From Jimgerdemannia flammicorona (Eukaryota), in assembly GCA_003990765.1 (NCBI GenBank), contig RBNJ01000041.1, positions 1 to 47,804 of the forward strand: a stretch of 47,804 nucleotides of DNA, given 5' to 3'. Positions 1,631-42,779 of the stretch are shown in pieces. Below the pieces are notes generated by a model. The model worked only from the letters and a program-made list of their open reading frames with translations. It did not search any database and had not been told where the DNA came from. The position numbers and the translations under genes were made by a program. Every line of letters starts with the position of its first letter. Positions within the stretch are counted from its first letter, which is position 1.

Positions 1631-2219
1631 TGTCAAAGACTGGCTTTGTTTGCACGACGAATCACTGCGAAGTTGCGTCAGAAACTGGCTTAAGCAAGGT
1701 GGCTTTCTAATGTGGTGGAAAAGGCAGAAATCTTCAGGCTTATCTGGCAAGTGAACCAAGGATTTCTCTTCAAAGGCAGCAAAGTTCTTCTTGAACTTAG
1801 GCGGCAAATCTTCAGACTTTGTATCGGAAAGTGGACTGGAGTGGGAATAAGGGGACCAATTGCTCAATCTTTAGAGGCTTCTTAGGTTTGCACTTCAATT
1901 CGGACTGAGGTTTTATTCACTCTCGCCTCTGGGGTAATTTATACAAGTTGGTTGCTATCTGGTTACTATGTGGCTAACTATAGATCTGCTACTTATGGCA
2001 GGTGTACAGAGTCTGTACAGTATACAGGACCTGTACAGTGTACAGAGTCTGTACGGTGTACAGAGTCTGTACAGGTAAACAGACCCTTTCTGGTATGTCT
2101 GGCTATTTATACAGTTTTCCGCAGCAAGAGTTGCTGGTTACTAAGCTAAGTGTTCACATCATCTTGTTCACGTCATCTGGTTAAGATATGATTTGGGTGG
2201 TACATCTTAGCTTGTCACA
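1631..2219 (-). repeat. putative 5' LTR of element D (~590 bp)
   Basis: TG...CA ends (TGTGACA...TTTGACA), TATA/polyA signals and an internal palindrome array. No second copy is in the window, so the inner boundary is uncertain. Confidence 0.6.
2002..2073. repeat. 4 x 18-bp tandem palindromic repeat (GTGTACAGAGTCTGTACA) within LTR D
   Basis: Directly visible; TGTACAG and CTGTACA are reverse complements. Confidence 0.9.
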
Positions 2220-2349
2220 ATATATATCAAACTGGCGAACATTTTAATCAGGTATATATATGATTTTGAAAGTAATTTTATTTGTGAATTTAGGAACTAA
2301 TTTAGTAAATAATTGGGAAGTAATATGTGTATATTTTTATTTTTTATAG

Positions 2350-2948
2350 ATAATGCTTATCGCTGCTGAGAATGTATGTATGAAACTTCTAAAGTATTAC
2401 TGCAAGATGACACCATTATACAGCATAGCTTCAGCCTTAGATCCACGTATCAACATGTGTTATTTCCATCATGAGTAATGGAAAAAATCCTTAATTGATG
2501 AATGGAAGAATCAGATGGAATGTATCTGGGAAAAGGAGTATAAGCCTGTTAATGCTATTATTATACCCTCAATATCTCATGATGCCGATGATTTTATCAA
2601 CTCAATATATGAGAAGAAACAGTGCATTGATGTGGATGATGAGCTTGAATGATGGGTGTTGTTTTTATGTTTTTTGATTGGCTTGGTTAATTTTTACTCA
2701 TATTTCTCTATTTCAGTTATTTGTCAGAGAATCCAGCTGATCCTCGTATAGATATACTGGATTGGTGGCAGCAAAATCAGTCGGTATATCCTAATATTTC
2801 ACGAATGGCTCGCAATTATCTTGCTATTTCGGTGATATCTGTTCCATCTGAACGTATTTTTTCTATTATTGGTGAGCTAGTGACTGAACATCAAAACAGC
2901 TTGTGTGTAAATACAATTTGTGTATGCATGTGTTTGGATTCTTGGTGA
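2350..2948 (+). pseudogene. hAT transposase C-terminus including dimerisation domain; intron-containing, with stops
   Basis: YSIASALDPRINM... then, after an intron ending TTTCAG (~2716), DILDWWQQNQSVYPNISRMARNYLAISVISVPSERIFS, the canonical hAT dimerisation motif. Confidence 0.9.
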
Positions 2949-3027
2949 TCTTCAGATATTTTTCACTTTCAATTACTCTGAATATTATCTAAATATTTTC
3001 TGAATTATTTTTTCAGAGCAGAGTTCA

Positions 3028-3345
3028 GAGGGTTGGGTTCAGGGTTGGGTTCAGGGGTTGGGTTCAGGGTTGGGTTCAGGGGTCGGGTTCAGGTTTGGGT
3101 TAAGGGTAAATAACAGGTCAGGTGACATACATTTCCAGGTCGGGTTAAAGATAGGTAATGTATCTTTCTGGGTTGGGTTAAAGATGGGTGACGTACAATT
3201 CTGAGTCAGGTTAAAGATGGGTGATGTATAATTCTGGGTCGGGTTAAAGATGGGTGATGTATAATTCCAGGTTGGGTTAAAGATGGGTGACATCTAATTC
3301 TGGGTTAGCTGTTTTATGGGTTGGGTTTCGGGTTAATTGGGTTGG
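3028..3345. repeat. hAT subterminal repeats: GGGTT(C/G) short repeats plus a 33-bp tandem array
   Basis: GGGTTAAAGATGGGTGATGTATAATTCTGGGTC-like unit, ~5-6 copies at 3110-3300. Confidence 0.85.
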
Positions 3346-7172: not shown

Positions 7173-10100
7173 ATGGATATGAGACCACCAGTATTCCATG
7201 GATATATCTCAGATGAATCAATCATCACCTTCATTGACGATTTCAAGCAGTATGCTGCTGTAAGGACTCTGACAGCAGCACAGCAAGTAGCCCTCATGCC
7301 CTTCAGCCTACAAGGTCCTGCCAGAGCAGCATTCACAGCTGCAACCCATACAGGAAATGATGCCGATGCTATACTGATAGCACAGAAGACCTGGCTCTGA
7401 AATACATATTACACAGACGAGATCAAGCAAGTCCTGAAGGATCAGCTCAACACAACATGCCAAGGAATGAGCAAGGATCCAAACACATTCTATACCAGAA
7501 TTTGATATCAGATAATCCTCACAGATTATGCTGCTGCTATCCGAGATCAAGTAGCCAAAGCAATCTTCATAAAAGGAGTCCATCCAGAAATAGCCATGGC
7601 CATCCGCTCATCACCAGTAATTCTGGATCTGCCACAGAAGGTCACCTATGCTCAGCGATACTGGATAGCCAGACACCCATAAGACTATACAATGGAGAGA
7701 GTTACAGGAGTCAGAATCGAGGCACCCAAGGCAACCAGTGTGATCCCCACCACAATGATCAATTGAAACACACCTCAGCCAAAAGCTACAGAGCAGCAAA
7801 AGAACAGTGACCCTATGGAGGAACTCACCAAAAGGTTTGCTAAAATGACTGCCCACCTGGGAGATGTGGTAAAGAAAATCCGAGGAAGAGATCACCACCC
7901 TGTTCAGAAGTTTACCACCACCTCAGACAAGAAGAAAGGTACCTGCTCAGCTGTAGAGAAGAAGGCCACTACTTCTATGAATATATGAGTGAAACCAAAC
8001 GTAAGGCTCAACCAAGCAATGTTACACAAAACAAGGAGCAGGCCAATACAATCACCTTTGAAGAAATCGGAGAATCTGATGAAGAGGAATAGGAGGCCTA
8101 TCCTGCTCAGACCACCAAGAAGGATGCTCACAAAGAACCCTACAAGAGACCACCAGGAAGACCCAAGAAGAACTCAGTGGAAAAGTGGATGAAAACTGAT
8201 ACAGAAAGCCAAGCTGAAGAGATGGACCAAGATATTGAGCTGGAGCAAGCAGTTCAAGATATCATCCGAGGAACCACAGCCAGTGAAGGAGAAAAAGAAA
8301 AGAAGCTTCACAAGACCAAGACCTTCAAGTATGATATCTTCAAGGATCTCAGTCAACAAAAGGTCAATGCAACCTTTGGTCAGCTCACAGAAATCCCAAC
8401 ATTCAGACAGCAAATGAGATTTGGACTTGCCGAAACAACCAAGGAATAAGGATGGAAGATAACTGAGACCAATAATGTTCAAGAGGACTCAGGAGAAGAA
8501 AGTGAGGATAATCGCAAAACCTCTGCTTATGCAACATACCAAATCAAAGATAGAACCTTTGAAGCCATCATCGATATGGGAGCAGGAGGATGTCTCCTCA
8601 GTAAGAAGGCAGCAGACCACCTAGGTTGGGATGTGGAAGAAGCAACTAAGCTAGTATTCGTCATAGCCAATGGCATAAGAGCCACACCCCTGGGAAAGAT
8701 CCGAGATGTTCCCATCAAGATTGGAGGAGCAACAATCCCAGTAGATGTAATCATAACCAATGCCACCAACTATGACATTCTCATCAGCAATCAATGGCTT
8801 CACAAAGCCAAGGCAGTAATTGATCTCAATGCTCAGAAGATACAGATCACCTACTGGGGACAGAAGATACAAATTCCCATCAATGTCAACAAAGGAGTCC
8901 TGTCTGATATGGAGAAAGAAGAGAGTGAGCAAGAGGAAGCTTATATAGTGACCATTCCAAAGAAGAAGAAAGTTGGATAGATGAGTGAAGAAGAATGGTG
9001 TAAGAAGATTGCAGAAGATTATGCCCTACAAGGAGTCTGTTCTTATGGAATCAAGATGTACTGTATGGAGCATATCAATGATTGCTACCAATGTACCATC
9101 GGAACCAAGAAGATCTACCAGGAAAGAAGGCAGAAAGCTCTCGAAAAACAGATCAGGGAAGAAGAGAAGGAGAAAGATGATGAACCACCAGCCCTCCTAG
9201 AGGACAGTGATGATGAAGAAGAAATCAAGGTCAAGATTCAAAAGATCCACCCTGATACAGTCTTGCCAGAATACAAGTCAGAAAATGCAGCCAGAATGGA
9301 CATCGCTACAGTAGAAGAAACTGTACTGGAACCCCAGACAACTACCCTACTTGCAACTGGACTGGAGATGACTATCCCAAAGGATCATGTCGGGATTCTC
9401 AAGACAAGAAGCAGCCTGGCTAGGTGCAAAATCACAATCGAAGGAGGAGTCATTGATTCAGACTATACTGGAGAAATTCTACTCATTGCTAGGAACCACA
9501 ATCCTACAATTCCATTCCCAGTCAAGAAGAAGGACCAATTGGCACAAATGTTGATCTTCCCAATCATACAACCAAGGATCATAGAAGTCAAGAATCTGGA
9601 GGAAACAAAAAGAGGAAAGAAAGGATTTGGATCTATAGGAAAAGGAGTATTTGCCAGCACCAAGATCACCGAACTCAAGCATAAGAAGGAGGAAAACATG
9701 AGCAAGCACAGTTACACCATTGGAGACGAATTCCCACTCAAGGAGGAACTCAAGAAAATACTCTACAAATTCGAGAATGTCCTTGCCATGGATTTCAAGG
9801 ATATCAAGGGAAAGACCCCACACTACTATTACGAGGTAGATACTGGAGACACCAAACCAATTTATCAGAAGGCAAGACCTGTCCCGCCAGCTTACCGAGA
9901 ATGGCTCAGAGATGAAATCAAGTAGATAGAAGAAGCCAGCATCATCAAAGAAGCCAGTAGCCCCTGGTCTTCACCAGTTGTACTAGCCCTGAAAAAAGGA
10001 AGCAAACCTGGAGAATTTGCCTCAAGGCTCTGTATTGACTACAGAAAGCTCAATATAGTTACCAAGAAGGATCATCAACCACTGCCACTCATCAGTGACA

Positions 10101-11161
10101 TCCTTATAATACTGGGAGATGAAGCAGAGTACTACAGCACCTTGGACTTATACTCAGGATTTCACCAAATCAGACTCACAGAGATGGTAAGTGAAAATTC
10201 AGCCTTCATCACCCTAGACAGAACCTACATCTACCTATGAATGCCATTTGGAATGTGCAATACACCAGCAAGCTTTCAGCAAATGATGAACAAAATCTTC
10301 CACTATGATATGGGAAGATGGATGATGGTCTATGTTGATGATGTAATCATCTATAGCAAGACACCTGAGGAACATCTACAGCACATATAGCAGATAATGG
10401 AGAAACTAAGACAACATGGCCTTTATATCAAACCCAAGAAGTGCAAGTTTGCAGAAATCGAGATCTCCTACCTTGGCCATATTATCAATCAAGATGGAAC
10501 ATACACGGACCCCCTCAAAATACAAGCAGTAGCAGTATACCCAAGGCCCACTACTGTTACAGAAGCCCAAGCCTTCATGGGACTTGTCTCCTACTATCGC
10601 AAATTCATTAGAGGATTCTCCAACATCGCAGGTCCAATCTATGAACTCAACAAGAAGGATACCAAGTTCCAGTGGACTGGCAGACAACAAAAAGCATTTG
10701 ACAAACTCAAGATCAGACTAACTCAAGATCCCATCCTCAGATGACCCAATTGGACCCAAGAATTTATCCTTCAGATGGATGCAAGTGCACAGGGACTAGG
10801 AGCAGTTCTAGCTCAAAAAGAAGACAAAAAAGAGTATGTCATTGCATATCTTAGCTGCGGAACCCGAGGGGCTGAAAAAGAATACAAGTCCTACAAGTTG
10901 GAATGCCTTGCAGTTATCTGGGTTGTGGAAAAGTTCCACTACTATCTGGCTAGAAGACACTTCACCATCCAGATGGACCACTCAGCTCTTACCTGGCTAC
11001 TGACAACTGGACAACCCAAGAGAATCTATGCCAGATGGATAATGAAGTTACAAGCCTATGATGTAACTATCATATACTGCTCTGGAAGAACAAATTCCAA
11101 TACAGATACTCTCTCATGGATACCTCAAACTACCTCCAACCAACAAATCAATCATGAATAA
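7173..11161 (+). pseudogene. gag-pol: ORF1 of A: gag (CCHC knuckle), aspartic protease, dUTPase, RT, RNase H; nonsense mutations and one frameshift (~7946)
   Basis: AIIDMGAGG protease site, dUTPase motifs, RLCIDYRKLN, YVDD (~10331), MDASAQGLGAVL, KLECLAV; ends QQINHE*. Confidence 0.95.
9224..9640 (+). CDS. dut: trimeric-type dUTPase domain within pol of A
   Basis: All five motifs: AARMDI, KTRSSLA, GGVIDSDYTGEI, LAQMLI, RGKKGFGSIG. Confidence 0.95.
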
Positions 11162-16422: not shown

Positions 16423-17369
16423 GCCCTTAGTCTGTAATTTGCAGACAAATTTGCCTACAAAAAATTATAATTTTTGTAAATTTATATCTTTATTAATATA
16501 AAAAATATTTATCTGAAAAATTAAAATAATATTAAAAATATATAATATTATATATCATAATTTTTTCAAACTGTTATCTAATTTATTCAAATTTATATTT
16601 ATTTTTTAACTTTAGTTCTTAGTTTGTAATATAGGTAAATTTGTCTGCAAAAATTAAATATTTTATAATATTATTAATAATAAATATATTTACTCCTAAT
16701 TATTAAATAATAATAACAAGATATATCAGCTTACAAATTATCAAACATTTCCTAATTTAATAATAGGATATTATTTTATTTTTATTTTTAAAGCTGCAAG
16801 CTACCATAAGCTGCAAGCCCCAAGCCCCAAGCCCCAAGCTGTAAGCTGCAAGCTACTTCAAAATTTGAAATTAGATATAACAGACATATTTGCTTATATC
16901 TTAACAAAAAGACATACAATCTTGAAGTTATTAAGCTTGTTAGAATGCTCTGAATTATAGTATTCCAATAAGCCTATATATATTAAGATTGGATACCTTT
17001 TTGCTGAAATATAAGTAAAAATGTCTGATATATCAAATTGTAAATTTTGATGATTCAGCATTACCAACATACTTAGTTCTAGCATTACCAAGAACTATAA
17101 ATGCAATCACAGAGTGGATCTAAACCCTGTCCCTTTTGGGTGAAGAGAAGAGTACTCTTTTAGAAATTTATAGATTCTTTTTCTGGTGAAATTTTGATAT
17201 ATATGCTCTAATTTTACTTCTGAATTTGCTGAAATACATGATATTACTATTGCTTTTTTTAAGGATACAGTTAAAAATTCCCTGGTCACAGAAATAATTG
17301 ACCATAATATCATCAAAATATTCATAAGAATACAGTTCAAAATATATACTACTTTTCAATATAACAGCT

Positions 17370-19020
17370 TTGAAAGGGGGGGGGTTTTTTTTTCAAAAAG
17401 GGAGGAGCCTCATTACTTTACCTTGCCTCATCTTGCCACTCTTTCTTCTTACCATTCATTCTATATACTTCGTCTCGATACTTATTTCAATACACTTTAT
17501 TCTAATATACTGTTCATTTCATTTCAATATGCTATCTTGTCTTACTGCTTATTCCAACACTGTCCTTAACACACTCTGCCATAACAGTCTTGTTTTCTTT
17601 TTTTTTGAAAGGGGGGAGTCTTATTGCTTTACCTCACCTTGTCTTACTGCTCATTTCAATACTTCTCTCCTTGCTATTCATTCCATACACTTCATCTCCA
17701 TGCTCATTCCAACACACTGTTCATTTCATTTCATTCTAATATACTTTTATTCCAATATACTGTTCATTTCATTCCAATGTGTAGCCTTGCCTTGCTGCTT
17801 ATTCTAGCACCTTATCTTACCACACTGCTTATTTCAATACTGCCTTTGCTGCAACAGCCTTGCTCTAATATTTCAAAAGGTTTGTTTTTTTTGAAGAAGA
17901 GAGAGCCTCATTGCTCTATCTTGCCTCATCTTACCACTCATTCCAATACTTCTCCTTGTCATTCATTCTATGTGCTTCATCTTGGCACTTATTTCAATAT
18001 GCTTTCATTTCAATGTACTGTTCATTTCATTCCAACATGTCACCTTATCTTGCTGCTTATTCCAGTATCTCATCTTGCCACACTGCTTATTCTAACACTG
18101 CTCTCAATGCACCCTACCATGACAGCCTTGGAAAAGTTTGTTTTTTTTTTTAAAAAAAGGGGAGAACCTCATTGTGCTCTACCTCACCTTGTCTTGCTAC
18201 TCATTCTAATGCTTCTCTTCTTGCTATTCATTCTATGCACTTCATCTCTATGCTCATTCTAACATATCATTTATTTCATTTTATTTCAATGTGCAGCTTT
18301 GCCTTGCTACTTATTCCAGCACCTTGTCTTACTATACTGCTTATTCCAACATTACACTCACTACAACAGCCATGCTCTGACATTTCAAAAGATTTGTTTT
18401 TTTTGAAGAGAGAGCCTCATTACTCTATCTCACCTCATCTTACCACTTATTTCAATACTTCTCCTTGTCATTCATTCTATGTACTTCATCTTGGTACTCA
18501 TTCCAATATATTATTCATTTCATTCCAATGTACCACCTTGCCTTGCCACTTATTTCAGCACTTTATCTTGTCACACTGCTTATCCTCACTGTACTTTTTA
18601 ATGCACCCTACTGTGATAGCCTTGGAAAAGTTTATTTTTTTTGGAAGAGAGGGGAGTCTCATTGCTCTATCTTGTCTCATCTTACTGCTCATTCCAATGT
18701 ACCATTCATTTCATTCCAACATACTGTTAATTTTATACCTTATCTCACCACTTATTTCAGCATCTCATCTTACCATATTGCACTATCCTTGCTATACTTT
18801 TCAATGTGCCCTACCATGACAGCCTTGCTTTAACATTTGAAAGATTCATTTTTTTTGAAAAGAGGGGAGCCTTATTACTCTACCTCACCTTGTCTTGCTG
18901 CTCATTCCAACACTTCTCCTTGCTGTTCATTTTATATACTTCATTTTGTCACTTATTCCACCTTATCATTTATTTCATTCCAATGTGCTATCTTGTCTTG
19001 CTGCTCATTTCAATACAATC
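17370..19020. repeat. diverged satellite, ~7 units of ~215-290 bp with alternating long/short units; related inverted copy at ~20997-21180
   Basis: Recurrent TTTTT(G)AAAAGAGGGGAGCCTCATTGCTCTA at ~17390, 17605, 17890, 18150, 18400, 18640 and 18852; internal CATTCCAA subrepeats. Confidence 0.85.
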
Positions 19021-19781: not shown

Positions 19782-20214
19782 AATATAAGAAATTAGTTGT
19801 AACAGTATTATAAATAGTATGCTGTCTACACCTAGGGAATTTTTAAAAAGAAAGATTGTTCTTCTTGACTAGTAGATTTCCAAGTGTCCTAAATATATTG
19901 CATAGTGGCACTTTACAGAAAGCTCATTCTTCCAGTTATATATAGTACTGGATAGCTATTTTCACTACCCAAGGATGAGAGAGTACAGTATATACAAAAA
20001 TTTATATAATGTATATACCTATTCTGAGGGAGTCTCTATTATAAAATATATAGTTTGGGACTTATGGTAGAAATATCAAATATATATATTCTTTATTAAA
20101 ATAAAATATTTTCTTATAAGGGCTAGTGTATATTGAGAGAGAGCATAGAATAAATATGTAATGAATGCAAGATAAAGAGAGAGGATAGAATGAATGCAGG
20201 CTAAAGAGAAGGAC

Positions 20215-20950
20215 TCTCTGCCAAAGTCTGAAGCTCTCTCTGCTAAAGTCTTCTCTGCTGAAGCCCCTGCTGCCAAAGCCCCCTCTGCTGAAGCCCCCTC
20301 TGCCAAAGCCCCCTCTGCTGAAACCCCCTCTGCCAAAGCCCCTTCTGCCAAAGTCCCCTCTGCTGAAGCCCCTGCTGCCAAAGCCTCTGCTACTGAAGCC
20401 CCTGCTGCTAAAGCCCTCTCTGCTGAAGCCCCCTCTACTGAAGCCCCCTCTGCTGAAGCCCCCTCTGCCAAAGTACCCTCTGGCAAAGTTCCCTCTGCTA
20501 AAGTTCCCTTTGCCAAAGTAGAGTCCCCTCTGCCAAAGTTCTCTCTGCCGAAGTTCCCTCTACTAAAGTTCTCTCTACTAAAGTCTCCTCTGCTAAATTC
20601 CCCTCTGCCAAATTCTCCTCTGCCAAGTCTCCTCTACTGAAGTCCTCTCTACTGAAGTCTCCTCTACCAAAGTCTCCTCTGCTGAAATCTCTCTACTGAA
20701 GTTCTCTTTATCAAAGTTCTCTTTGCTGAAGTAGAGTCTCTGCCAAATTTCCCTCTACTAAAGTTCTCTCTGCCAAAGTTCTCTCTACTAAAGTCTTCTC
20801 TGCCAAATTCCCTTCTGCTGAATTCTCCTCTACCAAAGTCCCCTCTACTGAAGTTCTCTTTGCCAAAATGGAGTCCCCTCTGCCAAAGTCCCCTCTGCTG
20901 AAGTCCTCTCTGCCAAAGTTTCTTTCTGCTAAAGTTTCCTCTGCTGAAGT
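20215..20950. repeat. 15-bp minisatellite (CTCTGCYRAAGYCCC), ~45-50 units
   Basis: Directly visible; phase slips at GAGTCCC/GAGTCTC interruptions. Confidence 0.95.
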
Positions 20951-21624
20951 ATTTACTGTCAAAGTCCCCACCATCTATGAACATGCTGGCTGACTAGGGT
21001 TGTATTGGAATAAGTAGCAAGATGAGATGCATTAGAATGAGTGGTGAGGTGAGATATATTGGAAGGAGCAGCAAGGTAAAGTGTATTGGAATGAGTAGTG
21101 AGATAAGATACATTGGAATAAGTAGTAAGACAAGGTATCTGAAAAGAACAATGAGGTAAGGCTCTCCTCCCTCTCAAAAGGACAATAAGCTGGTATAGAG
21201 AACTAGTATAATTAATCAATATGATGAACTGAATGAAACTCACCCTGTTTTTTTTCTTCTCTGAGTCTGAACATACTGACTGACTGGAGGTAAGGGTATT
21301 AAATATATCAACAAGACAAACCACTGGATGATATACATAATGGCAAACCATAACTATAGCCTTGCTGCATAACAATAGTCTCTCTTACCAAACAATGAGC
21401 AATAATAAGACAGGAAAATAAAAAGCAGATAAATGGTATGAATATGGTAGATAGCCTTTAGTAAGAAGAGAGTAAATGATAAGTAATAAAAGGAGTAATA
21501 ATAAGAGAGGAAAACAGTGAGCAGATGAATGGTAAACCATAATCATAACTATAGCCTCTATATAACTATAGTCTCACTGCTATCTTGTACTTATGACTGA
21601 AATTTTACCTTAAATTCAAAAGAA

Positions 21625-26506: not shown

Positions 26507-26864
26507 TGGCTATTTTAATATTTCAAGTCCTCCGGTCCGTGCTGGAGAATAGCCAACGCAACGAATTGAAGGACTCTTTCTCCGAAGGATTTGACAGGAT
26601 GGGAATTTTGGCTGGATCAAAGAAAGATATGTATCGTATATTTACAGGCCTCTTGTGACCTTTCACATCATGACCACTTTTTACCCGCGGCAAACTGGCT
26701 ATTTTAATATTTCGAGTCCTCCCGTCCGTGCTGGAGAATAGCCAACGCAACGAATTGAAGCTCTCTCCTCATGCCAAAAGGGTGACTCTTTCTCCGAAGG
26801 ATTTGACAGGATACAGGCTTCTTGTGGCCTTTCACATCATGACCACTTTTTACCCGCGGCAAAC
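26507..26864. repeat. tandem duplication (~188 + ~170 bp) with reciprocal indels
   Basis: TGGCTATTTTAATATTTC...GTCCGTGCTGGAGAATAGCCAACGCAACGAATTGAAG...TTTTTACCCGCGGCAAAC occurs twice. Confidence 0.9.
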
Positions 26865-27393
26865 AACTCTTTACCCCGGATACTCGGTAATGGGGATCCA
26901 TGGGAGATTTATCATCCGGCGATTTGCTTCAACCCCGGACTCTCCAGAGCCAATCGGTTTGCAGAATCTCAGCGAAAATCAACGTTAAGAACGAAAGACG
27001 GCATATTTGGAGCAGATGTTGATGTCGAGGGCAAAAAAGTGAGTGATTACTGGATCGGATACGTCCCCAATAACACTTTCAAATCATCGAAATCCGGAGA
27101 CAGCTACCGGTCAAATTTTCGTACTCTTTTGTCGCGATATTGATTCATTACTGATTTTGATGTGTTCGCAGATATGCCGACGCCAAGTCCGAAAGCGATC
27201 ATAATATGAGACCTCGCAGAAGAACAGATCCAAACAGTCCTGCAATCAAAACAGAATATTGGAGAGGATACCAAACAATCCTGCAATCAAATCCGAAATG
27301 GATGATATCCCGTATGTCCGCAGATTCGATTTTGTTTGGTTCAAGCTTGTCATATAAGTATCTTAGGGTAGGGCGAGACTATTTGATAGCAAA

Positions 27394-28214
27394 ATGTATA
27401 TCATTTCCGTCAGTGGAACTGTTTCGCTTACAAATGCCGGTGCGACTTTTACAGTCGGTCCTCACTACACGCTGCCTACTAGAATAAAGCTCAGTGTATC
27501 CCGTATCAGTACTGGTGTAGCTAAGGTATTTATATTTATCCCTGAGCTCCGAAAGCCCTTTCTGCTTGCTGAATATATCTCTACCGCCAGGTATCATTTC
27601 CTGGTCTATTTACAGACAAGCCAACTGTTGTTGCGACGCAATTTTGGAACAATCGATTCGATGTTGGGGGCGGCAACGTTCTTGATAATGCAGTTATCAA
27701 TACTATCGACAAAGATTCAAGTACTGTCCATGTTGGGAATTCCGCATCAAGTAATAACCTTTCAGACCGAGATTTCTGCTTTATCATAACTGGGCCATAT
27801 TCCGATTCCGTTCTCGGTGGTGATCGAGTCCAGAATGAGAGACTTATCCGCCTGGAGGCTAGTTGTTTCAGGTTGGAAGCCGAAGTTGCCGCGCTGAAAG
27901 ACCAGGTCGCTGCCAATCGCGGCCAGAAAGGCGATCCCGGTGAACGGGGACCCGGCGGGGAGAAGGGAGAACGCGGCGACCCCGGTCCTCATGGCCCCCA
28001 AGGACCGCCCGGACCGGCTGGCGGAAAGGTCTCGTTAACACCGACCGAGTTTGATTCGACGAGTTTCGTGTCGAATCGGATAAATGGCAATTACACGTTC
28101 ACTGTTGCGCAATGGGACACTGCACTTCGGAACCATCATTCGTTGGGTATGGTCGGCGACCACGGAGTCGATCTCGTCGCAATGCTACGCCAGTTGCTGA
28201 CTGGTGGTCGCTGA
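27394..28214 (+). CDS. spliced gene (exons 27394-27525, 27591-28214; 251 aa): beta-sandwich (tail-fibre-tip/H-type-lectin-like) domain, coiled coil, collagen (Gly-X-Y) repeats, C-terminal domain
   Basis: A 65-nt GT..AG intron (27526-27590) joins two frames into a stop-free ORF: VSRISTGVAKVSFPGLFTDKPTVVATQ...DNAVI...DRDFCFIITG; RLEAEVAALKDQV; GQKGDPGERGPGGEKGERGDPGPHGPQGPPGPAG. CpG is retained. Further 5' exons are possible. Confidence 0.85.
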
Positions 28215-28824: not shown

Positions 28825-28963
28825 TTACCCAATAAACTGAAGATAAAATTAAGTGGGTATTTTTCGCAAGTCAGTTTATTTGGGTAAATTAAGTGGGCAT
28901 TTTCGCAAGTCAGTTTATCTGGGTAAATTAAGTGGGTATTTTTCACTAGTCAGTTTATCTGGG
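28825..28963. repeat. 3 x ~39-bp tandem repeat plus an upstream inverted partial unit
   Basis: AAATTAAGTGGGTATTTTTCGCAAGTCAGTTTATYTGGGT x3; TTACCCAATAAACTGA inverted at 28825-28840. Confidence 0.9.
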
Positions 28964-30406: not shown

Positions 30407-31918
30407 TGTAATGGTGACCCCAGAATGATGACATCAGCACAGGAGACAGCCTTTCCTTATAAGCCACCAGATCGGAGCACAAGAAGATCATACGGCATAC
30501 GAGATGAGCAATGATGACCAACTGTGAGTTATTGTGACCACAGCATGAGTATCCTGAAGAATATAAAAGAAGGATCAAGGAACCACAGTAGCAGCAACCA
30601 ACAAGAACCACCAATCCCAAAATAGCTCAAAGACTTACCACAAATAAAATGCCTGCTGCTCACCAAACCTTAAGGTCAAGGAATTACCAAGATATCTCAG
30701 TCAAGGAAAGATATTCCAAGATATCAGAAGAGCCATGAGGACCTACTCAAGAAGGACTCCTAGCATCAACCTGGGTACTGCAGACCCTTATCACTTTATC
30801 CTCTACTGCTGCGAAATGGAAACAAGGATCACCATTGCTACTGAATGCCTCTAAATGTGGCAGGAGTACAAAATAGGAAATCTCCTCTGCTGGGAGTTCC
30901 CACAGGCTAGCACCCAAGAGCTACAAGATGCCACTCTGATGGATATATGCAAAACAAGAATAGCTAGGAAGATCCATCAGATCTTCAGGCATGCACCATG
31001 GTCAATCTCTAACTTGGAGTATGTTAGAGTCTCAGATTTCAGAGATCTATCATCCTGCTATATCAATGTACTAGAAGCCAGGGTGGCTACAGAAGCCCAG
31101 TCCACTATCACCCTTAATAACGAAGAAGTAGAAGACTTCTGGCACCCTATCCTTCAGGACAACCCAGATCATTTCCTGCAAGGATTGATCTCAGTATTCC
31201 AAGGCCCAAGCATCCAGGTTAGATCTCCCCAAGACCCCACATTTGTTTCTTATTTTGTGGAAGAGAACCTTATAGATTGGAGAGCTCCAGATCTTGTTCC
31301 CGATTTTCCCACCACAGCTAAACATGATGACGTCATCGGCGATGATGTCATCCCGCACAACATACCTAAAGTACACAAAGTATACAAAATGTGTGACAAT
31401 GAAGTATGCAAGATGTATGGCCTGCATGACAAATTCGCAGATCTCATCTCCTTCAGTGATGATGATGATGAGGATGAAGTCCCTATGGTTCTGAACTTTC
31501 TGCTCTAAGTTCTTTATTATACTGGATAATGCCAGCACCGGCATTCTGAGGTGATACAAAATTATTCCAGTACTAGTATTTTGATATGACACTAAATAAT
31601 GCCAGCACTGGAACTTAGTAGTTTTAGTTATTGGAATTTATATTTAGCTTTATATCTTAGCAACCATTGAATTATATTTTGTATAAATACCTCTCTTATT
31701 TCCTCTGAAATAAAGTCAGTTCCGGTTTCACTTATACACACTTTCTTGCAAGCAATCTAAGAGATAACAAGACAGTTAAAGATAAGAAGTTTGAGGACTA
31801 TAAGATCTTGGGAAGGCACTCCAATAAGAACTTACTTATAACAACTTAAGTTAGTCTAAGAGATACATCTTGAAAAGAATCTGGCATATTTGAAGGACTC
31901 AGCGACCACTATGTAACA
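30407..31918 (+). repeat. 5' LTR of B (1512 bp)
   Basis: TGTAA...TGTAACA; direct repeat of 39635-41147. Confidence 0.97.
30649..31508 (+). pseudogene. LTR-encoded accessory ORF, 5'-LTR copy (1-nt deletion plus a stop)
   Basis: Copy of 39877-40737. Confidence 0.8.
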
Positions 31919-34132
31919 ACTTGGTGTTCATTGGCTGGTGATTCAAGACGAATCCCTCACTTTCAAGCTGAAAAATAAACAACCCCCACAACAACTACCC
32001 TGACTACAAGAGTCACCCCTACAAGAATTCAAGACAAGATGGAAATGCGCCCCTCCATATTCTATGGATATACTACTGAAGAGTCAATCCTGACCTTTAT
32101 TGAAGACATTGAACAATTTGCCGCTGTACAAGCCCTTGGTGTAGATACTCAATTGGCTCTTCTACCAGTCAGCCTCAGAGGACCTGCCAGAGACAAGTTC
32201 AATGCAGCCACCATTGCTGATGCTGGTGCAGTCAAACTTGCCAACATGAAGGCCTTCCTTAGAATAATATATTATACTGAAAAGATCAAGCAAGCTCTCA
32301 AGGATCAACTCAATACTATCTTCCAGGGACTTAGTGAAGATCCCAACTCATTCTATACCCGAATCTGCCACCAGATTATCTTGGCTGGCTATGATGACTG
32401 CCTCAAGGAATAAATAGCAGATTCAATCTTCCTCAAAGGAGTTTACCCTGAAATTGTCCTAGTAATTCGGTCTACTCCAGCTGCACTGACCCTTGATCAG
32501 AAAGTGGTCTTTGCACAGAGATATTGGACAGCCAGATACCCTGCTGAACACTCAATGGAGAAAATAACTGGTATCAAGATGGAGCCATCAAAGCCAACTA
32601 GTATCTTACCTGCCACAGTTGTAAACAGACAACCAATCCCACCTACTCTCAAGACAGCCAAAGCTGACCCAGTGGAAGAACTTGCCAAGCAGTTCGCTGA
32701 GATGACTGCACACCTTGGTGATGTTGTTAGAGAAGTCTGAAGTGCCAACAGGAGACCAGTGCAGAGATTTGCAGCTGCTACAGAAGAATACAATATCACA
32801 TGCTTTAGATGTAGAGAAGAAGGCCACTATGCAAAGAGTTGCATGACCAAAATAAGATGCAAAGTCCAACCAAGCAATGCTAGCAGAACCAGAGAACAAA
32901 CTAATGCAGTAGTCATTGAGGAGATTGGTGATACTGATGATGAAGAATACTATGAGGAGCTCGAATTCTACTCTGCTACTGAAGGTACCAGAACCCGGTC
33001 CAAGCCCTATGATAGGAAGAGCAACAGCAAGCCAGTTGGAAGATCAAAAAAGACTCCAATTGTCACTATTCAAAGCAAGACCCAATACGAGAAGATTGAT
33101 CAAGACATGGAGTTAGACGAAGCTGCCTGCCAAATTATTGAAGGCACTACTCCAGTCTCAGGAGAAAGCGAGAGCAAGAAGGAACAGAAGCTGTGCAAGA
33201 CCAAGATCCACCAGTATGACATCTACAAGGACCTCAAGAAACAGAAGATCAATGCCACTTTTAGGCAGCTAGCTGAAGTCCCTACCTTCAGACAGCAGTT
33301 GAGAGTAGGACTTGTAACTACTGTCAAGAATCAAGAGTACAAGATTGTAGAAGCTCACAATGTACAAGAAGAATCTGAGAACTCAGTTGAAGAATCTGAA
33401 GATCAGCGCAAGACATCAGCCTATACCCCCTGCCAGATCGAAGACTGTATCTTTGATGCCATCATTGATACTGGTGCTGGAGAATGTCTCATGAGCAAGA
33501 AGGCAATTGACCACCTAGGTTGGGACATTGAAGAGTCCACCAAGATGGTCTATGTTACAGCAGACAGTACATGAGCTACCCCCCTTGGCAAAATCCGAGA
33601 AGTCCTCATCAAGATAGGAGGAGCTACTATCCCAGTAGACATGATTGTTACAAGTGCCACCAACTATGACATCCTCATTGGTAACCAATGGCTTTACAAG
33701 GCCAAGGCCATCATTGACCTCAATGCCCAGAAGATGCAGATCAACTACAGAGGGAGAAAGGTACAAGTTTCTATCAATGTCCACAAAGGAGTCCTGCCAG
33801 ATATGGAGGAAGAAGATGAAGAAGACACAGAGGTCTTCATGCACTTGGTGAACAAGAATAAGAACAAGATACCCAAGCTCACAGATGAGCAGTAGTATAA
33901 CAAGATTATCGATGGGTATGCCCCTCAAGGAAGATGCCCCCATGGTACTAGAATGTACTACTCTGAACACCTGAATAACTGCTGGTCCTGTATCAGCGAA
34001 GTCAGGAAAATCTGCTAATGGAAATACGAGCAAGAAGCTGCCGAAGCAAAAGGGAAAGCTGAAGAAGATGACCAGCCCCCAGAGCTTCAAGCTGACAGTG
34101 ATGATGAGGAGGAACAAGAATCAGACATCACC

Positions 34133-34543
34133 CTCAAGGTCAAGAAGTTTCACCCTGAAGTCAAGATCCCAGAATACAAGACTGAAGGAGCCATAGGAAT
34201 GGACCTTGCCAGCATCCAAGATGCTACTCTCAAACCACAGACCACCACCCTACTTGGTACTGAAATTGGAGTCAAGTTGCCAGAAAACCATGCTGGAATT
34301 ATCAAGACCAGGAGCAGTCTGGTCAAAAGTGAAATCTCAGTTGAAGGAGGAGTAATTGACCCTGATTACACTGGTGAGATTTTTCTCATAGTCAGAAATC
34401 ACAATCACACCACCCCCTTCAAAGTCAAGAAGCATGACAGGATTGGCCAGATGCTGATCCACGAAATCAAGAAGCCCAAGATTGTAGAGGCCACTGAACT
34501 TATCAAGACCAAGAGAGGAGAACAAGGCTTTGGATCTACTGGA
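34133..34543 (+). CDS. dut: dUTPase domain within pol of B
   Basis: GMDL, KTRSSL, GGVIDPDYTGEI, RIGQML, RGEQGFGSTG. Confidence 0.95.
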
Positions 34544-36010
34544 AGAGGAGCCTATGCTGCCACCAAGATTACTGAACTTGAGCATAAGAAAAACAAGGAC
34601 CAGAATAAGCACACATATACCATTGGAGAAAACTTTCCCCTGGAGGAACAACTTCTCAAGATCCTGCACCAGAACGAAGGAGTACTTGCTACAGACTTTA
34701 GGAATATCCACAATCAGGAACCCAAGTACTACCATGAAGTTGACACTGGTGATACCAAGCCTATCTACCAGAAAGCCAGACCCATACCACCTGCCTACAG
34801 AGAGTGGCTGCAAGCCGAACTCAAGGAAATGGAAGAAGCTGGAATCATCAAGCAAGCTATCAGCCCCTGGGTCTTACTCATTGTCCTTGCCCCAAAGAAA
34901 GGAAGTAAGTCTGGAGAGTTTGCACCAAGACTCTGCATTGACTACAGGAAACTCAATGCCATCACCAAGAAGGATAGATAGCTCTTGCTGAATATTCAAG
35001 AAATCCTTACTATCCTTGGAAGCAAAGCCAAATACTACACCACCTTGGATCTGTTCTCAGGCTTCCATCAGATCGGTCTCACTCAAGATGCCAGTGAGAA
35101 ATCAGCCTTCATTACACCTGATGCCACCTATATCTATCTGTGAATGCCATTTGGAATGTGCAATGTCCCAGTAAGTTTCCAGTGAATGATGAACAGAGTC
35201 TTCAGCAACGAGATTGGAAAATGGCTCTTTGTCTATATTGATGATATGATCATCTTCAGCAACACTGTACGGGAATATGTCAATCACATATAACTAGTCC
35301 TCAAGAGGCTCAAGGAGCATGACCTCTACATCAAGCCCAAGAAATACAAGTTTGCAGCTCAAGAAATCACCTACCTAGGGCACCTCATCAACCAGACTGG
35401 AATCCACACAGACCCCATGAAGATCGAGGCTGTTGCAGCCTATCCAAGACCCAGAATAACCACAGAAGTCCATGCCTTCCTTAGACTGGCCAGCTACTAT
35501 AGAAGATTCATCAAAGAACTCCAACATTGCAGCACCTATCTATGAGCTACTGAAGAAGGAGACCAAATTCGAATGGACCAAGGAGTACCAAGAAACCTTC
35601 AATGAACTCAAGACCAGGTTGACCCAAGCACCCATCCTCAGAAGACCAGACTGGAGCCTAGAATTCATCCTGCAGACAGATATAAGTGCTATAGGACTTG
35701 GAGCAGTCCTAGCTCAGAAGAAAGATGGACATAAATATGTCATCTCCTATGCAAGCTGAGGTACCCGCAGAGCAGAACAGAACTACAAGTCATGCAAGCT
35801 TGAATGCTTAGCGGTAGTTTGGGCAGTAGACAAGTTCTACTACTACCTAGCTAGAAAACACTTCACCATTCAAACAGACCATTCCGCTCTTGCCTGGCTA
35901 TTCCACACTCTGAACCCCAAAGGAATATATGCCAGATGGATCTACAGGCTACAAGAATATGACTGTACTGTCAAGCACTGCCCAGGAAAGACCAACACCA
36001 ATGCTGATGC

Positions 36011-38041
36011 TATAAGAGGGTTGCTTTTTAGGGTAACCGTTACGTAGTTCTGGAAAGGTTTTCTGGATATTCTAGAGGTTCTGGAAGACTGTTTTCTTAA
36101 GGTCAAGATCAACTTCATATGGAGTACATCCTCTACACTTATTGATTCCAAGATTGGGTTGACGTCTTAACCAAAGTCCTTTTTCGGACTAGTTCTGGAT
36201 GTTCAGGATTTTCTGTATTTCAGGAAGTTCAAGAAACTAAGACCAGCTTAGTTGAATTGGTGTATCACTGCAGACAATACCCAATTAGGAAATTTCATGA
36301 TGGGGTTAGAAGTGGGACCTAATAGGGAGCAGATTTACTTAAGAGTGATTTGTGGGTTATGGAATAGGTTTATTTGCTATTCATAATATTGCTATACTAG
36401 GAGTAATTGTGTGAAGAGATATTTGTGGGGAAGTATTCAGAAATGTTCTTGTGTATTTGAGTCTGAGATTCTGAGGTCTGGGAGAGGGGGTATTTATACT
36501 AGTGAGGAGCTATCTGGACTATGCTAGATATGGATATAGCACTAGGTGCTTTGCTGAGTCGGAATGCAGTCACATAGTACAAGTGTGATCTGACATATCA
36601 AGAGATCATCTGACTGCTGAGTCAGTTCACAGTCATGTCATACAAAGCTAATCTAACTATACTATGACTGCTAGGCTATTTATGGGTTTAGGTACTGTCT
36701 GAGTAGTTCTCGATGACATCACTATCAATTGCATCATCTCTGATAAAGTAGTTGTCTAGGAAGAGTGGTTCGTGGATTACTTCTCCTTATTTGCTAAGGT
36801 AGTAATACATTGGGACTTCGTCTCCATCCTACAGGATAGCATCGTCTGTCTCGTAGGCTGGATAAGGTGTTGGTGGGCGAAGGATGGGTGTATTGTCTTC
36901 ACTTTCATCGGATTTACTGTCTGTATACCTTCTATAGGTTACAGCACTATGAGTTGCAGGATTATAGTAAGCTGGCAGCTGTGGTTCATGTCGCTCATAC
37001 TCAGGTAGTGGAGTGGTTGGTTCGATCTCAAGGGTTGTCTGAAGGTACAGGTTGTGTTCTCCAGTCTCTTCATTGTAGTTGAAGTAATTGGGTGTAATGC
37101 GGGTTGGTATTCGTGCCAGTGGTCATTGTCCCAATAAGTCTCGTATGCAGTTATGAACTGTTGTAAGTTCATCGGCAAGATTGGCAGTGTGATCAGGGTT
37201 GGCAGAGATCCTTGGCTAGAGGTCATGTCAGTGTCAGAGGGGTCATTGTCTTCTGCTTCATCTTCATCGAAGTGGATTATATCATAGATGTCCTTCATGG
37301 TATATCCAACTTGGGGCATTTGCAGGATGTGATCATTGGGGTGTGGGAAGGTTCTATCTGTGGTTTCGACATACTCGAGGTACTTGTGGTTGAGTTCTTG
37401 TATCATATCATCGATTTGGCCATAGGACAGGGTAGCAACCATTTCACTGGTAGTAACTTGGAGGTGGGAAATAAAGGTGCTGTACTCATAGAAGAGTTCT
37501 CGATGTTTGCAGGCGATGAGCTTCTGGTGTTGAGATATCTGGATAATGTCTGTATCATAATGGTGTTTGACCATGTCTTCCAGGAGGCGGCCGATCTGGT
37601 AGTAGCTTGAGATTTGTCCAATTCGGTGGGCCTCGCTAAGCATGTTCAGAGCATTCCATTGGGCTTCTATGAAGTAGAGGGGTGCTAGGCTATGGATATT
37701 CATGAGGGGCAGAGGGGGTGTAGCTCAGTTGACAATGGCATTCCAAATGTCAGCACAGATGCGGTTGTAGATCTCAGTGGTCATGTTTGTGTGTTTGAAA
37801 GTTGTAGTTGTTGTTTGTTTTGGTTCTCTGATTTGACGCATCTCGGTACTCAGTATATATGCATTTGGTCCTGATTGGTAAGATTCTGTTTGTGTAATTC
37901 TTGTATTCTGTGACTTCATATTGACTCAGCTTTGTGATCAAGCAGGTGATTTCCAGATTTGTTCAGAGGTCATGTGAGATTTCAGTGGCTTGTTCAGAGG
38001 GTGATGTGTAATTTCGGTGGCTTAGAGGTTGTGCGCTTACA
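36011..38041 (-). mobile_element. solo LTR of family C (2031 bp); 5-bp TSD GATGC/GATGT
   Basis: Inserted in the ADALSR codons of B RNase H. The empty site is visible in the B-like copy near 45085. Confidence 0.95.
36787..37784 (-). pseudogene. family C LTR-encoded accessory ORF (~332 aa ancestral; two stops and a 1-nt deletion)
   Basis: MTTEIYNRICADIWNAIVN*...SYYQIGRLL...LFYEYSTFISHL...DGDEVPMYYYLSK*; frame restored by comparison with 5592-6579. Confidence 0.8.
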
Positions 38042-39634: not shown

Positions 39635-41147
39635 TGTAACAGTGACCCCAGAATGATGACATCAGTACAGGAGATAGCCTTTCCTTATAAGCCACCAGAT
39701 TGGAGTACAAGAAGATCATACAGCATATGAGATGAGCAATGATGACCAACTGTGAGTCATTGTGACCACAGCATGAGCATCTTGAAGAATATGAAAGAAG
39801 GATCAAGGAACCACAATAGCAGCAACCAACAAGAACCACCAATCCCAAAATAGCTCAAAGACTTACTACAAACAAAATGCCTGCTGCCCATCAAACCTTA
39901 AGGTCAAGGAATCACCAAGATATCTCGGTTGAGGAAAGGATGTTCCAAGACATCAGAAGAGCCATGAGGACCCACTCAAGAAGGACTCCTAGCATTAACC
40001 TGGGTACTGCAGGCCCTTATCACTTTATCTTCTACTGTCACGAAATGGAAACAAGGATCACCATTGCTACTGAATGCCTCCAAATGTGGCAGGAGTATGA
40101 AATAGGAAACCTCCTCTGCCAGGAGTTCCCACAGGCCAGCACCCAAGAGCTACAAGATACCACTCCTATAGATATATATAAAACAAGAACAGCTAGGAAG
40201 ATCTATCAGATCTTCAGGCATACACCATGGTCAATCCCCAACTTGGAGTATGTTAGAGTCTCAGATTTCAGAGACCTATCATCCTGCTGTATCAATGCAC
40301 TAGAAGCCAGGGTGGCTACAGAAGCCCAGTCCACTATCACCCTTAATAGCGAAGAAGTAGAAGACTTCTGGCACCCTATCCTTCAGGACAACCCAAATCA
40401 ATTTCTGCAAGGATTGATCTCAGTATTCCAAGGCCCAAGCATCCAGGTTAGATCTCCCCAAAACCTCACATTTATTTCTTATTTTGTGGAAGAGAACCTT
40501 ATAGACTGGAGAGCTCCAGATCTTGTTCCCGATTTTCCCACCACAGCCAAACATGATGATGTCATCGGTGATGACATCATCCTGTGTGACATACCTGAAG
40601 CACACGAAGTACATGAAATGCGCGACAATGAAGTATACAAGATGCATAGCCTGCATGATGAATTCGCGAATCTCATCTCCTTCAGTAATGATAATGACGA
40701 GGATGAAGCCTCCATGGTCTTGAACTTTCTGCTCTAAGTTCTTTGTTACACTGGATAATGCCAGCACCAGCATTCTGAGGTGATACGAAATTATTCCAGC
40801 ACCAGTATTTTGATGTGACACTAAATAATGCCAGCCCTGGAACTTAGTAGTTTTAGTTATTGGAATTTATATTTAGCTTTATATTTTAGCAACTATTGAA
40901 TTATATTTTATATAAATACCTCTCTTATTTTCTCTGAAATAAAGTCAGTTCCAGTTTCACTTATACACACTTCCTTGCAAGCAATCTAAGAGATAACAAG
41001 ACAGTTAAAGATAAGAAGTTTAAGGACTATAAGACCTTGGGAAGACACTCCAATAAGAACTTGCTTATAACAACTTGAGTTAGTCTAAGAGATACTCCTT
41101 GAAGAGAATCTGGTATATTTGAAGGACTCAGTAACCACTATGTGACA
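39635..41147 (+). repeat. 3' LTR of B (1513 bp)
   Basis: Follows the PPT; TGTAACA...TGTGACA. Confidence 0.97.
39877..40737 (+). CDS. intact 286-aa LTR(U3)-encoded accessory protein of element B
   Basis: Stop-free 861-nt ORF inside the 3' LTR, upstream of the TATA box (~40911); homologous to ORF3 of A and the LTR ORF of C. Confidence 0.82.
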   Translation: MPAAHQTLRSRNHQDISVEERMFQDIRRAMRTHSRRTPSINLGTAGPYHFIFYCHEMETRITIATECLQMWQEYEIGNLLCQEFPQASTQELQDTTPIDIYKTRTARKIYQIFRHTPWSIPNLEYVRVSDFRDLSSCCINALEARVATEAQSTITLNSEEVEDFWHPILQDNPNQFLQGLISVFQGPSIQVRSPQNLTFISYFVEENLIDWRAPDLVPDFPTTAKHDDVIGDDIILCDIPEAHEVHEMRDNEVYKMHSLHDEFANLISFSNDNDEDEASMVLNFLL

Positions 41148-42779
41148 ATATATACTCACCACTATTACTGCAAATGCTATCTCCCGAATTCTTAAGAAAT
41201 CAATCTTGCAAAATTTGCTCAAACTGATCATTACTCTAGTTCTGAGACAGTAATATCTGCAAAACCAGAAAACAGTCCAAATGATCTCAATCAAGTATCG
41301 ATTATTGCCTTGTAAAAAGTCAGTGAGCTATATTTGTATATTTGTAACAAATGTTAGTTGACTAGAAAGATATTTTTCGATTCCCAAATATATATATATA
41401 CTCACCCTCAGATTTTTGAGGTACTCTTTGAAAAATTCCAATGTGGGATCCGGTGGATCTGAAAATGATGGAAGTTGTTCTGTACTAATAAACCCATCAT
41501 AGCATATAACACAGGATCTTTTATCGATAAGAAGTAAGCACAATAGAGAATCTTAGTTGGCATTGTTAATCAATCTCAGATTTGGAACAATGTGGGTGAG
41601 CATGGGATCCACAAGGCACTTTTCAAATTACTTGTGGATTTCCCTTCAGAAATCATTCATAATGATCTTTGCCTACAAACATGATGAGGTAAATATCTAA
41701 ATTAAAATTTTCTCGAATAAGTAGCAATGAATGAAATAAATATTAAAAAAATTAATATAGTTATGTACCTCTGCATAGAGGTCTTGGTCATTAGGTAAAT
41801 CTAGTTTTGAGGATTTGAAGGAAGTATACAGTACATCAATGAAGGCATTGCACAATTGCAGGTCAGGGAACAGCTCTGCAATAATGAAAGCTCATCTTAA
41901 CTCTTTGGGAAATTCTTTGGAAAGGTCCTCAGGTTCACTTACTATCTCTCCTTTAGTAGTAATTAAACGTTCCCTAAGCATTATTTGACAAATAGATTCT
42001 GAGCAAGTCCATTGTCAATTTATACCTAACTAGCAGGATTCCAAGGTAAAGAGAACATGTGCTGCAGGATTAGGTAAAGGGGTAAAAGAGGTACACTCCA
42101 CTTACTCCACTTTAATGAGATTTAGAGTAACTTCTAGAAATGCATTAGACTGCTTAAGCAAAGCAATAGACAAATACATATTTAATGCTATCAGCATTTG
42201 TTCAGCATTATTATTCCATCAAATGGCTGACATATAATATATTATATATATATTTATTCATCTGATCCATGAGTATAAGTAAAAATATAGACTGGCCAAA
42301 AGCTTGTTAATGTGTTTATTTGTACATATTATCTATGAGTCATAAGTAAAAATATAGACTAGCCAAAAGCTTGTTAATGTATTTATTCTTGCATCTGATC
42401 CATAGCTTGTTAATGTTATTCATGTATCTGTTCCATAAGCTATAAGCAATGAAGCTATAGTCAAAAATTTGTTTAATATATAAGTATATGTCTATATATA
42501 TTATAAATTGGGCTTTAGCCAAAAGATGATACCAAAAGCTTTATATATCTATATTAATCAGTCTAGTTAATCAGTATAAAAAAAAAGACATGTATCTATT
42601 ATCCTTCTATCATTTTAAAAAGGAAGAAAGGTGTAATTTAATTTAATATATATTTATGCAGCTCATTCTTGTACCATAAGTAAAAATAAAATATAAAGAG
42701 AACTATGAACATCCATATTACTCTTCTATTTACCTGCTATAACTACCAAAAATTTGCATGAAGTGACCAGACCATCAGT

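Follow-up and report, generated by a model that had tools for sequence, protein, structure and literature searches.

A candidate narrow-lineage gene of Jimgerdemannia flammicorona for a small, probably trimeric collagen-like protein with orphan end domains

What kind of protein, if any, is encoded at positions 27394-28214 of contig RBNJ01000041.1 from Jimgerdemannia flammicorona (GCA_003990765.1)? The whole stretch of DNA analysed here (the window) comprises 47,804 nucleotides (nt) of the forward strand, and the locus within it had been proposed from its sequence to contain an intact spliced gene. The original prediction went further, describing the product as a trimeric, collectin-like carbohydrate-binding protein with a bacterial or phage-type head, possibly acquired horizontally and intronised afterwards. 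The reading that we favour, with moderate confidence, is that of an intact, single-copy, narrow-lineage gene for a 251-amino-acid (aa) subunit of a parallel homotrimeric fibre. The product is probably a non-animal collagen-like protein with orphan domains at both ends.

Removal of a predicted 65-nt GT..AG intron leaves an intact frame of 251 codons on the plus strand. Exon 1 (27394-27525) comprises the ATG at 27394-27396 and a further 43 codons (44 codons in all), and encodes the first part of a beta-rich N-terminal domain. The predicted intron (27526-27590) reads GTATTT...CAG, and exon 2 (27591-28214) contributes 207 codons followed by a TGA stop at 28212-28214. Enumeration of GT..AG pairs from ATG 27394 reproduced the gene, the intron length and the product size that had been proposed. 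Among the 26 in-frame GT-AG combinations found by script from this ATG, the 251-aa version is the longest; shorter in-frame alternatives use donor 27517 (248 aa), acceptor 27620 (241 aa) or donor 27409 (GTCAGT; 212 aa). The stop-to-stop frame holding exon 2 extends over 213 codons (27573-28214), and by our own estimate, made without a tool, about 0.04 open frames of this length would be expected by chance in the window. The sole methionine of this frame lies about 30 residues before the C-terminus (translation judged by eye), which accounts for the previously reported absence of the gene from an ATG-based track of open reading frames (ORFs).

Coding potential was measured as the share of RNY codons (purine, any base, pyrimidine) in the proposed frame versus the other two frames. 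Exon 1 gave 0.43 in the proposed frame versus 0.07 and 0.23 in the others. The part of exon 2 that encodes the N-terminal domain gave 0.50 (0.19 and 0.17), the neck 0.40 (0.24 and 0.24) and the C-terminus 0.38 (0.23 and 0.30). In contrast, the measure was flat both in the predicted intron (0.24; 0.14 and 0.24) and in the upstream leader at 27172-27311 (0.24; 0.26 and 0.26). This bias speaks for coding function in both exons and against it in the intron, and it disfavours an alternative with an exon of 5 codons.

The frame carries a heptad pattern and a Gly-X-Y run in addition to its coding periodicity, and the anticipated layout of beta-rich head, heptad neck, collagen-like run and short C-terminal domain holds. 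The coiled-coil neck (27822-27908, plus strand; exon-2 residues 78-106) consists of about four heptads with L85, L88, C92, L95, V99, L102 and V106 in the core. It is followed by the collagen-like run (27921-28028, plus strand; residues 155-190 of the spliced protein, 111-146 of exon 2), which contains 12 uninterrupted Gly-X-Y triplets; a count of 11 had been given earlier, and the twelfth is gained when the last GGK is included. The run holds 8 prolines and 10 charged residues in 36 positions and has a GC content of 0.73, and Tandem Repeats Finder (TRF) reported no DNA tandem repeat there. The C-terminal domain (28029-28214, plus strand) adds 61 aa and the TGA.

Complex prediction was performed with exon-2 residues 76-207 in three copies, alongside three controls. 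The three-copy model reached a median score of 0.61, compared to 0.00 for the best of the three controls, with at least 74% contact agreement between runs and a partner pLDDT (predicted local distance difference test) of at least 59. Inter-chain contacts in the neck were modelled at exon-2 residues 78, 81-82, 85, 88-89, 92, 95-96, 99, 102-103 and 106, a clean 3-4 heptad spacing that places L, L, C, L, V, L and V in the core and bears out the heptad stretch noted earlier. Modelled three-chain contacts then continued unbroken over exon-2 residues 109-151, consistent with a collagen-like run held in register. In the C-terminal domain, predicted contacts between helices of different chains fell at exon-2 residues 172-180 and 189-207, again with helix-like spacing. 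In calibration on two copies, 21 of 30 proteins solved as one-chain pairs passed the mark, compared to none of 23 solved as single chains; of eukaryotic proteins 17 of 29 passed, but only 1 of 7 for which no older relative had been solved, and none of 30 single chains. Based on this model trimerisation is probable, which backs the trimer inferred in the original prediction, with the proviso that the pass may reflect the predictor's memory of solved coiled coils and collagens.

These results are consistent with a model in which the four-heptad neck would set three chains in register and nucleate the adjoining charge-rich, collagen-like helix of 12 triplets, while the C-terminal 61 residues would supply a helical clamp. 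Three beta-rich N-terminal heads would then be displayed at one end of the fibre. The head would be the working part, a putative multivalent binding module; that binding occurs, to which ligand, and whether at the surface or after secretion rather than in the cytoplasm, are points on which we infer rather than observe.

Relatives were sought separately for the head (exon 1 and the first 77 or so residues of exon 2) and for the tail (the last 61 residues). A word-index search of 5.8 billion proteins returned no relative of the head, at near or longer lengths, and no relative of the tail. Neither exon 1 nor the tail matched a family in Pfam, PHROG or NCBIfam, and these three collections and the PDB sequences gave nothing beyond the collagen run. 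The PDB sequence search returned collagen and chance matches only, and NCBIfam yielded weak matches to collagen adhesins (24 bits, compared to cut-offs of 325-500). Matches to 37 PHROG families were obtained, and the 25 of these 37 that were listed had their best stretches within exon-2 residues 93-190. Searched by itself, the head gave a single PHROG match at E 0.098 and the tail gave none; tblastn of the head against phages found nothing better than E 5. Pattern scans for the head found no match in prokaryote genomes, viral contigs or metagenomes, and a scan of viral contigs for the tail was likewise empty. The single metagenome match to the tail (L076) was rejected as a chance similarity inside an ABC-transporter ATPase.

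An exhaustive phmmer search with the whole of exon 2 produced 1791 matches at E of 0.001 or less. Among the best 150 of these 1791, the best stretch overlapped the collagen run in all but one (table read by eye), and none shared the head or the tail; since the query included the collagen run, relatives of the head alone scoring under about 50 bits would fall outside these 150. The one exception, a multi-stretch match to exon-2 residues 60-81 in a 999-aa protein (P0017), was discarded as spurious: with a 53-residue unit repeated some 18 times, the protein has the look of a translated satellite. In prokaryote genomes, exon 2 as a whole matched 17 loci, 17 of 17 through collagen only and with no significant similarity beyond neck and collagen run. 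At two of these loci, L013 and L002, the alignments were longer but carried by collagen, and the head compared with the L013 protein gave E 16. The L013 frame itself (1884-3146), a typical example of these matches, encodes a 420-aa prokaryotic collagen-like protein in which a small globular module separates two collagen runs. In the ESM Atlas, exon 2 as a whole scored at best 0.83 and the head at best 0.78, both below the level that shuffled proteins reach. At the level of sequence, then, head and tail have no detectable relatives in the collections searched, and all significant matches stem from the collagen run.

Several observations weigh against an intact gene for a trimeric fibre. The donor of the predicted intron, GTATTT, lacks the usual G at +5, and other in-frame donors are present. 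The match to Pfam Collagen (PF01391; 25 bits, E 1.6e-5) missed the cut-off of 27.2 bits because the run is short, and 12 triplets is short for a stable triple helix. AlphaFold2, run on exon 2 as a single sequence, was uninformative, with a mean pLDDT of 35.6. The mark passed by the three-copy model was calibrated on two copies, and memory may have contributed to that pass. Collagen-like proteins usually act outside the cell, whereas no clear signal peptide is present here: the 11-residue Kyte-Doolittle mean at the N-terminus peaks at 1.55, which is weak and agrees with the earlier remark that no signal peptide is evident. Finally, as no homologue of head or tail was found, there is no conservation sign of selection on the frame.

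Some of these points feed a rival explanation, namely that the locus lacks a functional gene in the form modelled here, either because the frame is a decaying or never-expressed ORF or because the true exon structure, in the first exon or the donor, is a different one. We regard this as a minority possibility of real weight. Besides the non-consensus donor, the several alternative in-frame donors and the missing signature of purifying selection, it draws on surroundings dominated by degraded retroelements, and on a number of short ORFs and two plausible introns upstream of the gene, which suggest a more complex transcript. However, 251 codons stand intact around a predicted intron with canonical GT..AG ends, and the RNY bias is strong and frame-specific in both exons and missing from the intron and the leader. 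Moreover, neck, collagen run and C-terminus together give one coherent modelled trimer, which would be unexpected of a random ORF.

The two upstream introns invoked by this rival were also considered on their own. The nearer candidate (27312-27371, plus strand) is 60 nt long and reads GTATGT...TAG; translation from ATG 27298 through it stays open and would add 12 residues. An N-terminal extension from ATG 27206 through the same candidate intron was rejected because it falls out of frame. The more distant candidate (27039-27171, plus strand) is 133 nt long, reads GTGAGT...CAG and has no ATG-started frame entering its donor. The flat RNY signal across 27172-27311 makes it more likely that both lie within the 5' leader, and this suggests that they are candidate 5'-leader introns of the gene. 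Further upstream, 530 bp from the ATG, there is a tandem duplication of about 189 bp (26507-26864) that is 77% identical overall, with blocks at 94-100%.

If the gene encodes a fibre with a displayed head, what might that head be? The original prediction saw in it a resemblance to H-type lectins and to phage tail-fibre tips. The part of the N-terminal domain encoded by exon 2 (27591-27821, plus strand; exon-2 residues 1-77) begins with the strand motif VSFPGLFTDKPTVVAT, and over about 69 residues it weakly resembles the H_lectin pattern. Pfam H_lectin (PF09458) gave no match up to E 10 on either exon piece, each searched unspliced. Home-made profiles, built from bacterial domains, were therefore run on the computed spliced protein.

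H_lectin domains were gathered from bacterial genomes of three phyla, in which they occurred in 63 of 401, 21 of 401 and 3 of 401 genomes; of 103 matched places, the 58 for which loci were given were used. With 25 proteobacterial domains, a hidden Markov model (HMM) scored 3.6 bits (equalled by 8 of 2000 shuffles), and hhalign gave 3.5% probability (equalled by 2 of 300), a result replaced by that of the 58-domain profile. With all 58 domains the HMM score rose to 7.9 bits (3 of 5000 shuffles equal), and local hhalign gave 49% probability and E 1.7e-4 over 46 columns. The global hhalign alignment covered 74 columns with two small gaps and scored 16.04, a value equalled by none of 220 shuffles (mean 2.5, standard deviation 1.95, maximum 10.5). 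None of 200 natural 77-residue pieces attained either the local or the global score of the head. When exon-2 residues 1-80 were aligned to 57 domains, an incomplete one (L075) having been dropped, hhalign returned 34% probability and E 4.3e-4 over 16 columns. The confident part of the alignment spans 16-17 residues only, namely the strand motif VSFPGLFTDKPTVVAT. In the 241-aa splice variant (acceptor 27620) the match to the H_lectin profile is entirely gone.

Across the 57 bacterial domains, columns F9, P17 and F48 are invariant and R35, G47, W67 and A69 are kept in at least 90%. Mapped by eye, the head retains 2 of these 7 positions, F9 and P17, and replaces R35, G47, F48, W67 and A69. ESM Atlas offered a weak lead to an H_lectin cluster (score 0.76), under any useful threshold. 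The head therefore matches an H-lectin-type sandwich in length, opening strand motif and hydrophobic pattern, and membership of the family is not demonstrable from these likenesses; we put such a fold at about one in three. We regard the resemblance to H-type lectins seen earlier as lying in the twilight zone of sequence similarity. The likeness to tail-fibre tips is also weak: the PHROG families (25 of 37 listed) and the phage matches cover the collagen run only.

These data bear on the possibility that the protein is a collectin-like carbohydrate-binding trimer whose head, of bacterial or phage H-type-lectin or tail-fibre-tip type, was acquired horizontally and later intronised. The end-to-end alignment to the 58-domain profile, together with the HMM and hhalign values and the weak ESM Atlas lead given above, speaks for it. 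So do the frequency of H_lectin in bacterial genomes, the passed trimer model and the presence of some bacterial copies on coiled-coil stalks: bacterial ORFs of 203-270 aa (loci L036-L042, from the phylum of G001) start, as judged by eye, with a hydrophobic segment, continue with a long heptad-like region and end in an H_lectin domain. In those proteins the lectin heads and coiled-coil stalks are arranged in the order opposite to that of the window protein. The missing Pfam match, the five replaced columns and the brevity of the confident alignment count against this scenario. In the collections searched, head and tail gave no prokaryotic, viral or metagenomic relative, and the prokaryotic loci matched through collagen only, in 17 of 17 cases. 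With no donor found for either end domain, horizontal transfer is without support. In addition, H-type lectin sequences are described in one source as predicted in many fungal genomes and never isolated from a fungus (PMC8227253); a head of this type would hence be no evidence of transfer on its own. We consider this scenario improbable.

The 'collectin-like' label is likewise unsupported. Collectins such as mannose-binding lectin and surfactant proteins A and D are trimers in which a collagen stalk and an alpha-helical coiled-coil neck present three globular heads. The working logic of the window protein would be the same, with trimer, collagen, coiled-coil neck and three heads. However, its order is head-neck-collagen instead of collagen-neck-head, its collagen run is much shorter, and it has neither a clear signal peptide nor an N-terminal cysteine-rich region. 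The exon pieces gave no Pfam match to a C-type lectin domain. A variant that takes these differences into account would be an 'inverted collectin' of a type not seen before: a trimeric mini-collagen with a highly diverged H-type-lectin-like head. Many fungal defence lectins lack a classical signal peptide, as this protein would, and it would be used for multivalent recognition of glycans on a host or competitor. Head and tail would either be ancient, having diverged too far for recognition by sequence, or have arisen recently in the lineage. To our mind this is an unlikely elaboration of the trimeric collagen-like fibre; should the head turn out to be a lectin, the protein and the animal collectins would be convergent counterparts of reversed polarity.

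How does a trimeric collagen-like fibre of this kind compare with other known proteins? H-type lectins (PF09458), such as Helix pomatia agglutinin and the small bacterial H_lectin proteins, are characterised by a six-stranded beta-sandwich and by GalNAc binding. They have domains of about 67-69 residues and share with the head the opening V-x-F-x-x-x-F-x-x-x-P-x-V, whereas the head does not retain their R, GF, TW and W-x-A positions. The streptococcal proteins Scl1 and Scl2, Lcl of Legionella and collagen-bearing phage tail fibres place a charge-rich Gly-X-Y run beside a globular or helical trimerising domain, as would be the case here, and like the run in bacterial collagen-like adhesins that of the window protein would have to fold without hydroxyproline. 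In contrast to these proteins, it has no anchor motif or clear signal peptide, and its head and tail are unrelated to theirs. Among the literature matches listed, no architecture joining an H-type lectin, a collagen-like run and a coiled coil was found; one article holds all three terms, which there belong to separate rotifer lectin families (PMC8878817).

Among the closest likenesses are fungal proteins with collagen domains, such as Mcl1 of Metarhizium and those of Entomophthora muscae, in which a short Gly-X-Y run sits in an otherwise unrelated, lineage-specific protein. Collagen domains are reported to be widespread outside animals, with 508 fungal collagens counted (10.1101/2021.10.08.463732), and the collagen repeat domain is described as enriched among the species-specific secreted proteins of E. 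muscae (10.1101/2023.09.13.557621). Going by these two sources, proteins of this sort are numerous, and their occurrence is scattered. Compared to non-animal collagen-like proteins, the window protein is set apart by the lack of a clear signal peptide and by a coiled-coil neck directly before the collagen run. Short, charged collagen runs beside coiled coils are also present in database proteins, one of them a 109-aa protein (P0080) in which a hydrophobic leader is followed by heptads that lead directly into the collagen run, with no head or tail domain. It is 65% identical to the window protein over exon-2 residues 89-145 (57 residues), including a near-identical stretch of 12 residues in the neck; this match is short and of low complexity, and we therefore make no claim of common descent. 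Collagen-like segments outside animals are common and almost never characterised. If expressed, the gene would offer a very small test case (251 aa, 12 triplets) of a neck-nucleated, hydroxyproline-independent triple helix in a eukaryote, and could show what such fibres present at their tips. Its present value, as an unannotated orphan gene, is mainly that of a candidate for annotation and structure prediction.

Could the gene be the cargo of a mobile element, or of an endogenous virus that carried a collagen gene of giant-virus or phage type, and not a host gene? Phage tail fibres often contain collagen-like runs, the listed PHROG families (25 of 37) match through the collagen run, and the neighbourhood is full of retroelement fragments. 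However, the stretch from 26.9 to 28.4 kb is not repeated in the window and has no matching long repeats at its flanks, the predicted intron is of eukaryote type, and the searches returned neither a viral-contig relative of head or tail nor a phage relative of the head. Cargo of this kind is, in our estimation, highly improbable. The gene is present in a single copy within the window and forms a GC island, with a GC content of 0.43-0.73 along its length versus 0.26-0.33 in the AT-rich flanks. The window is filled with repeated, degraded elements of Ty3/gypsy type that carry protease, dUTPase and zinc-knuckle domains, and the gene is located between these elements and not inside them.

Two diverged copies of a Ty3/gypsy-type retroelement, about 69% identical, lie at 8294-11110 and 33179-36011 (also 32741-34981). 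Both have the order protease, dUTPase and start of reverse transcriptase, plus a zinc knuckle, with the frames in broken pieces. Retroelements of the protease-dUTPase-reverse transcriptase type are described from basidiomycetes and Tuber (PMC2864245) and from bdelloid rotifers (PMC5408684). The genome of E. muscae is reported to be enriched for the same set of Pfam domains as these elements of the window (10.1101/2023.09.13.557621). Together with the collagen repeat noted above, this parallel is a lead to a type of genome and a gene family, not an identification.

Scans of the whole window with Rfam and for tRNA genes found nothing. A 1.5-kb repeat pair (30407-31919 and 39635-41148) is 92% identical and carries an ORF of 217-305 aa without a Pfam family, which probably belongs to a mobile element as an accessory ORF. 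TRF detected a 39-bp tandem repeat in three copies at 28846-28963, some 630 bp beyond the stop codon of the collagen-like gene. On the minus strand, 20062-20951 is internally repetitive, and its frames of 165-185 aa translate into what look like RGG-like repeats rich in Gly, Phe, Ser and Arg. A block of internal repeats that have diverged to 64-71% identity lies at 17328-19015, where the plus strand holds long open frames of low complexity.

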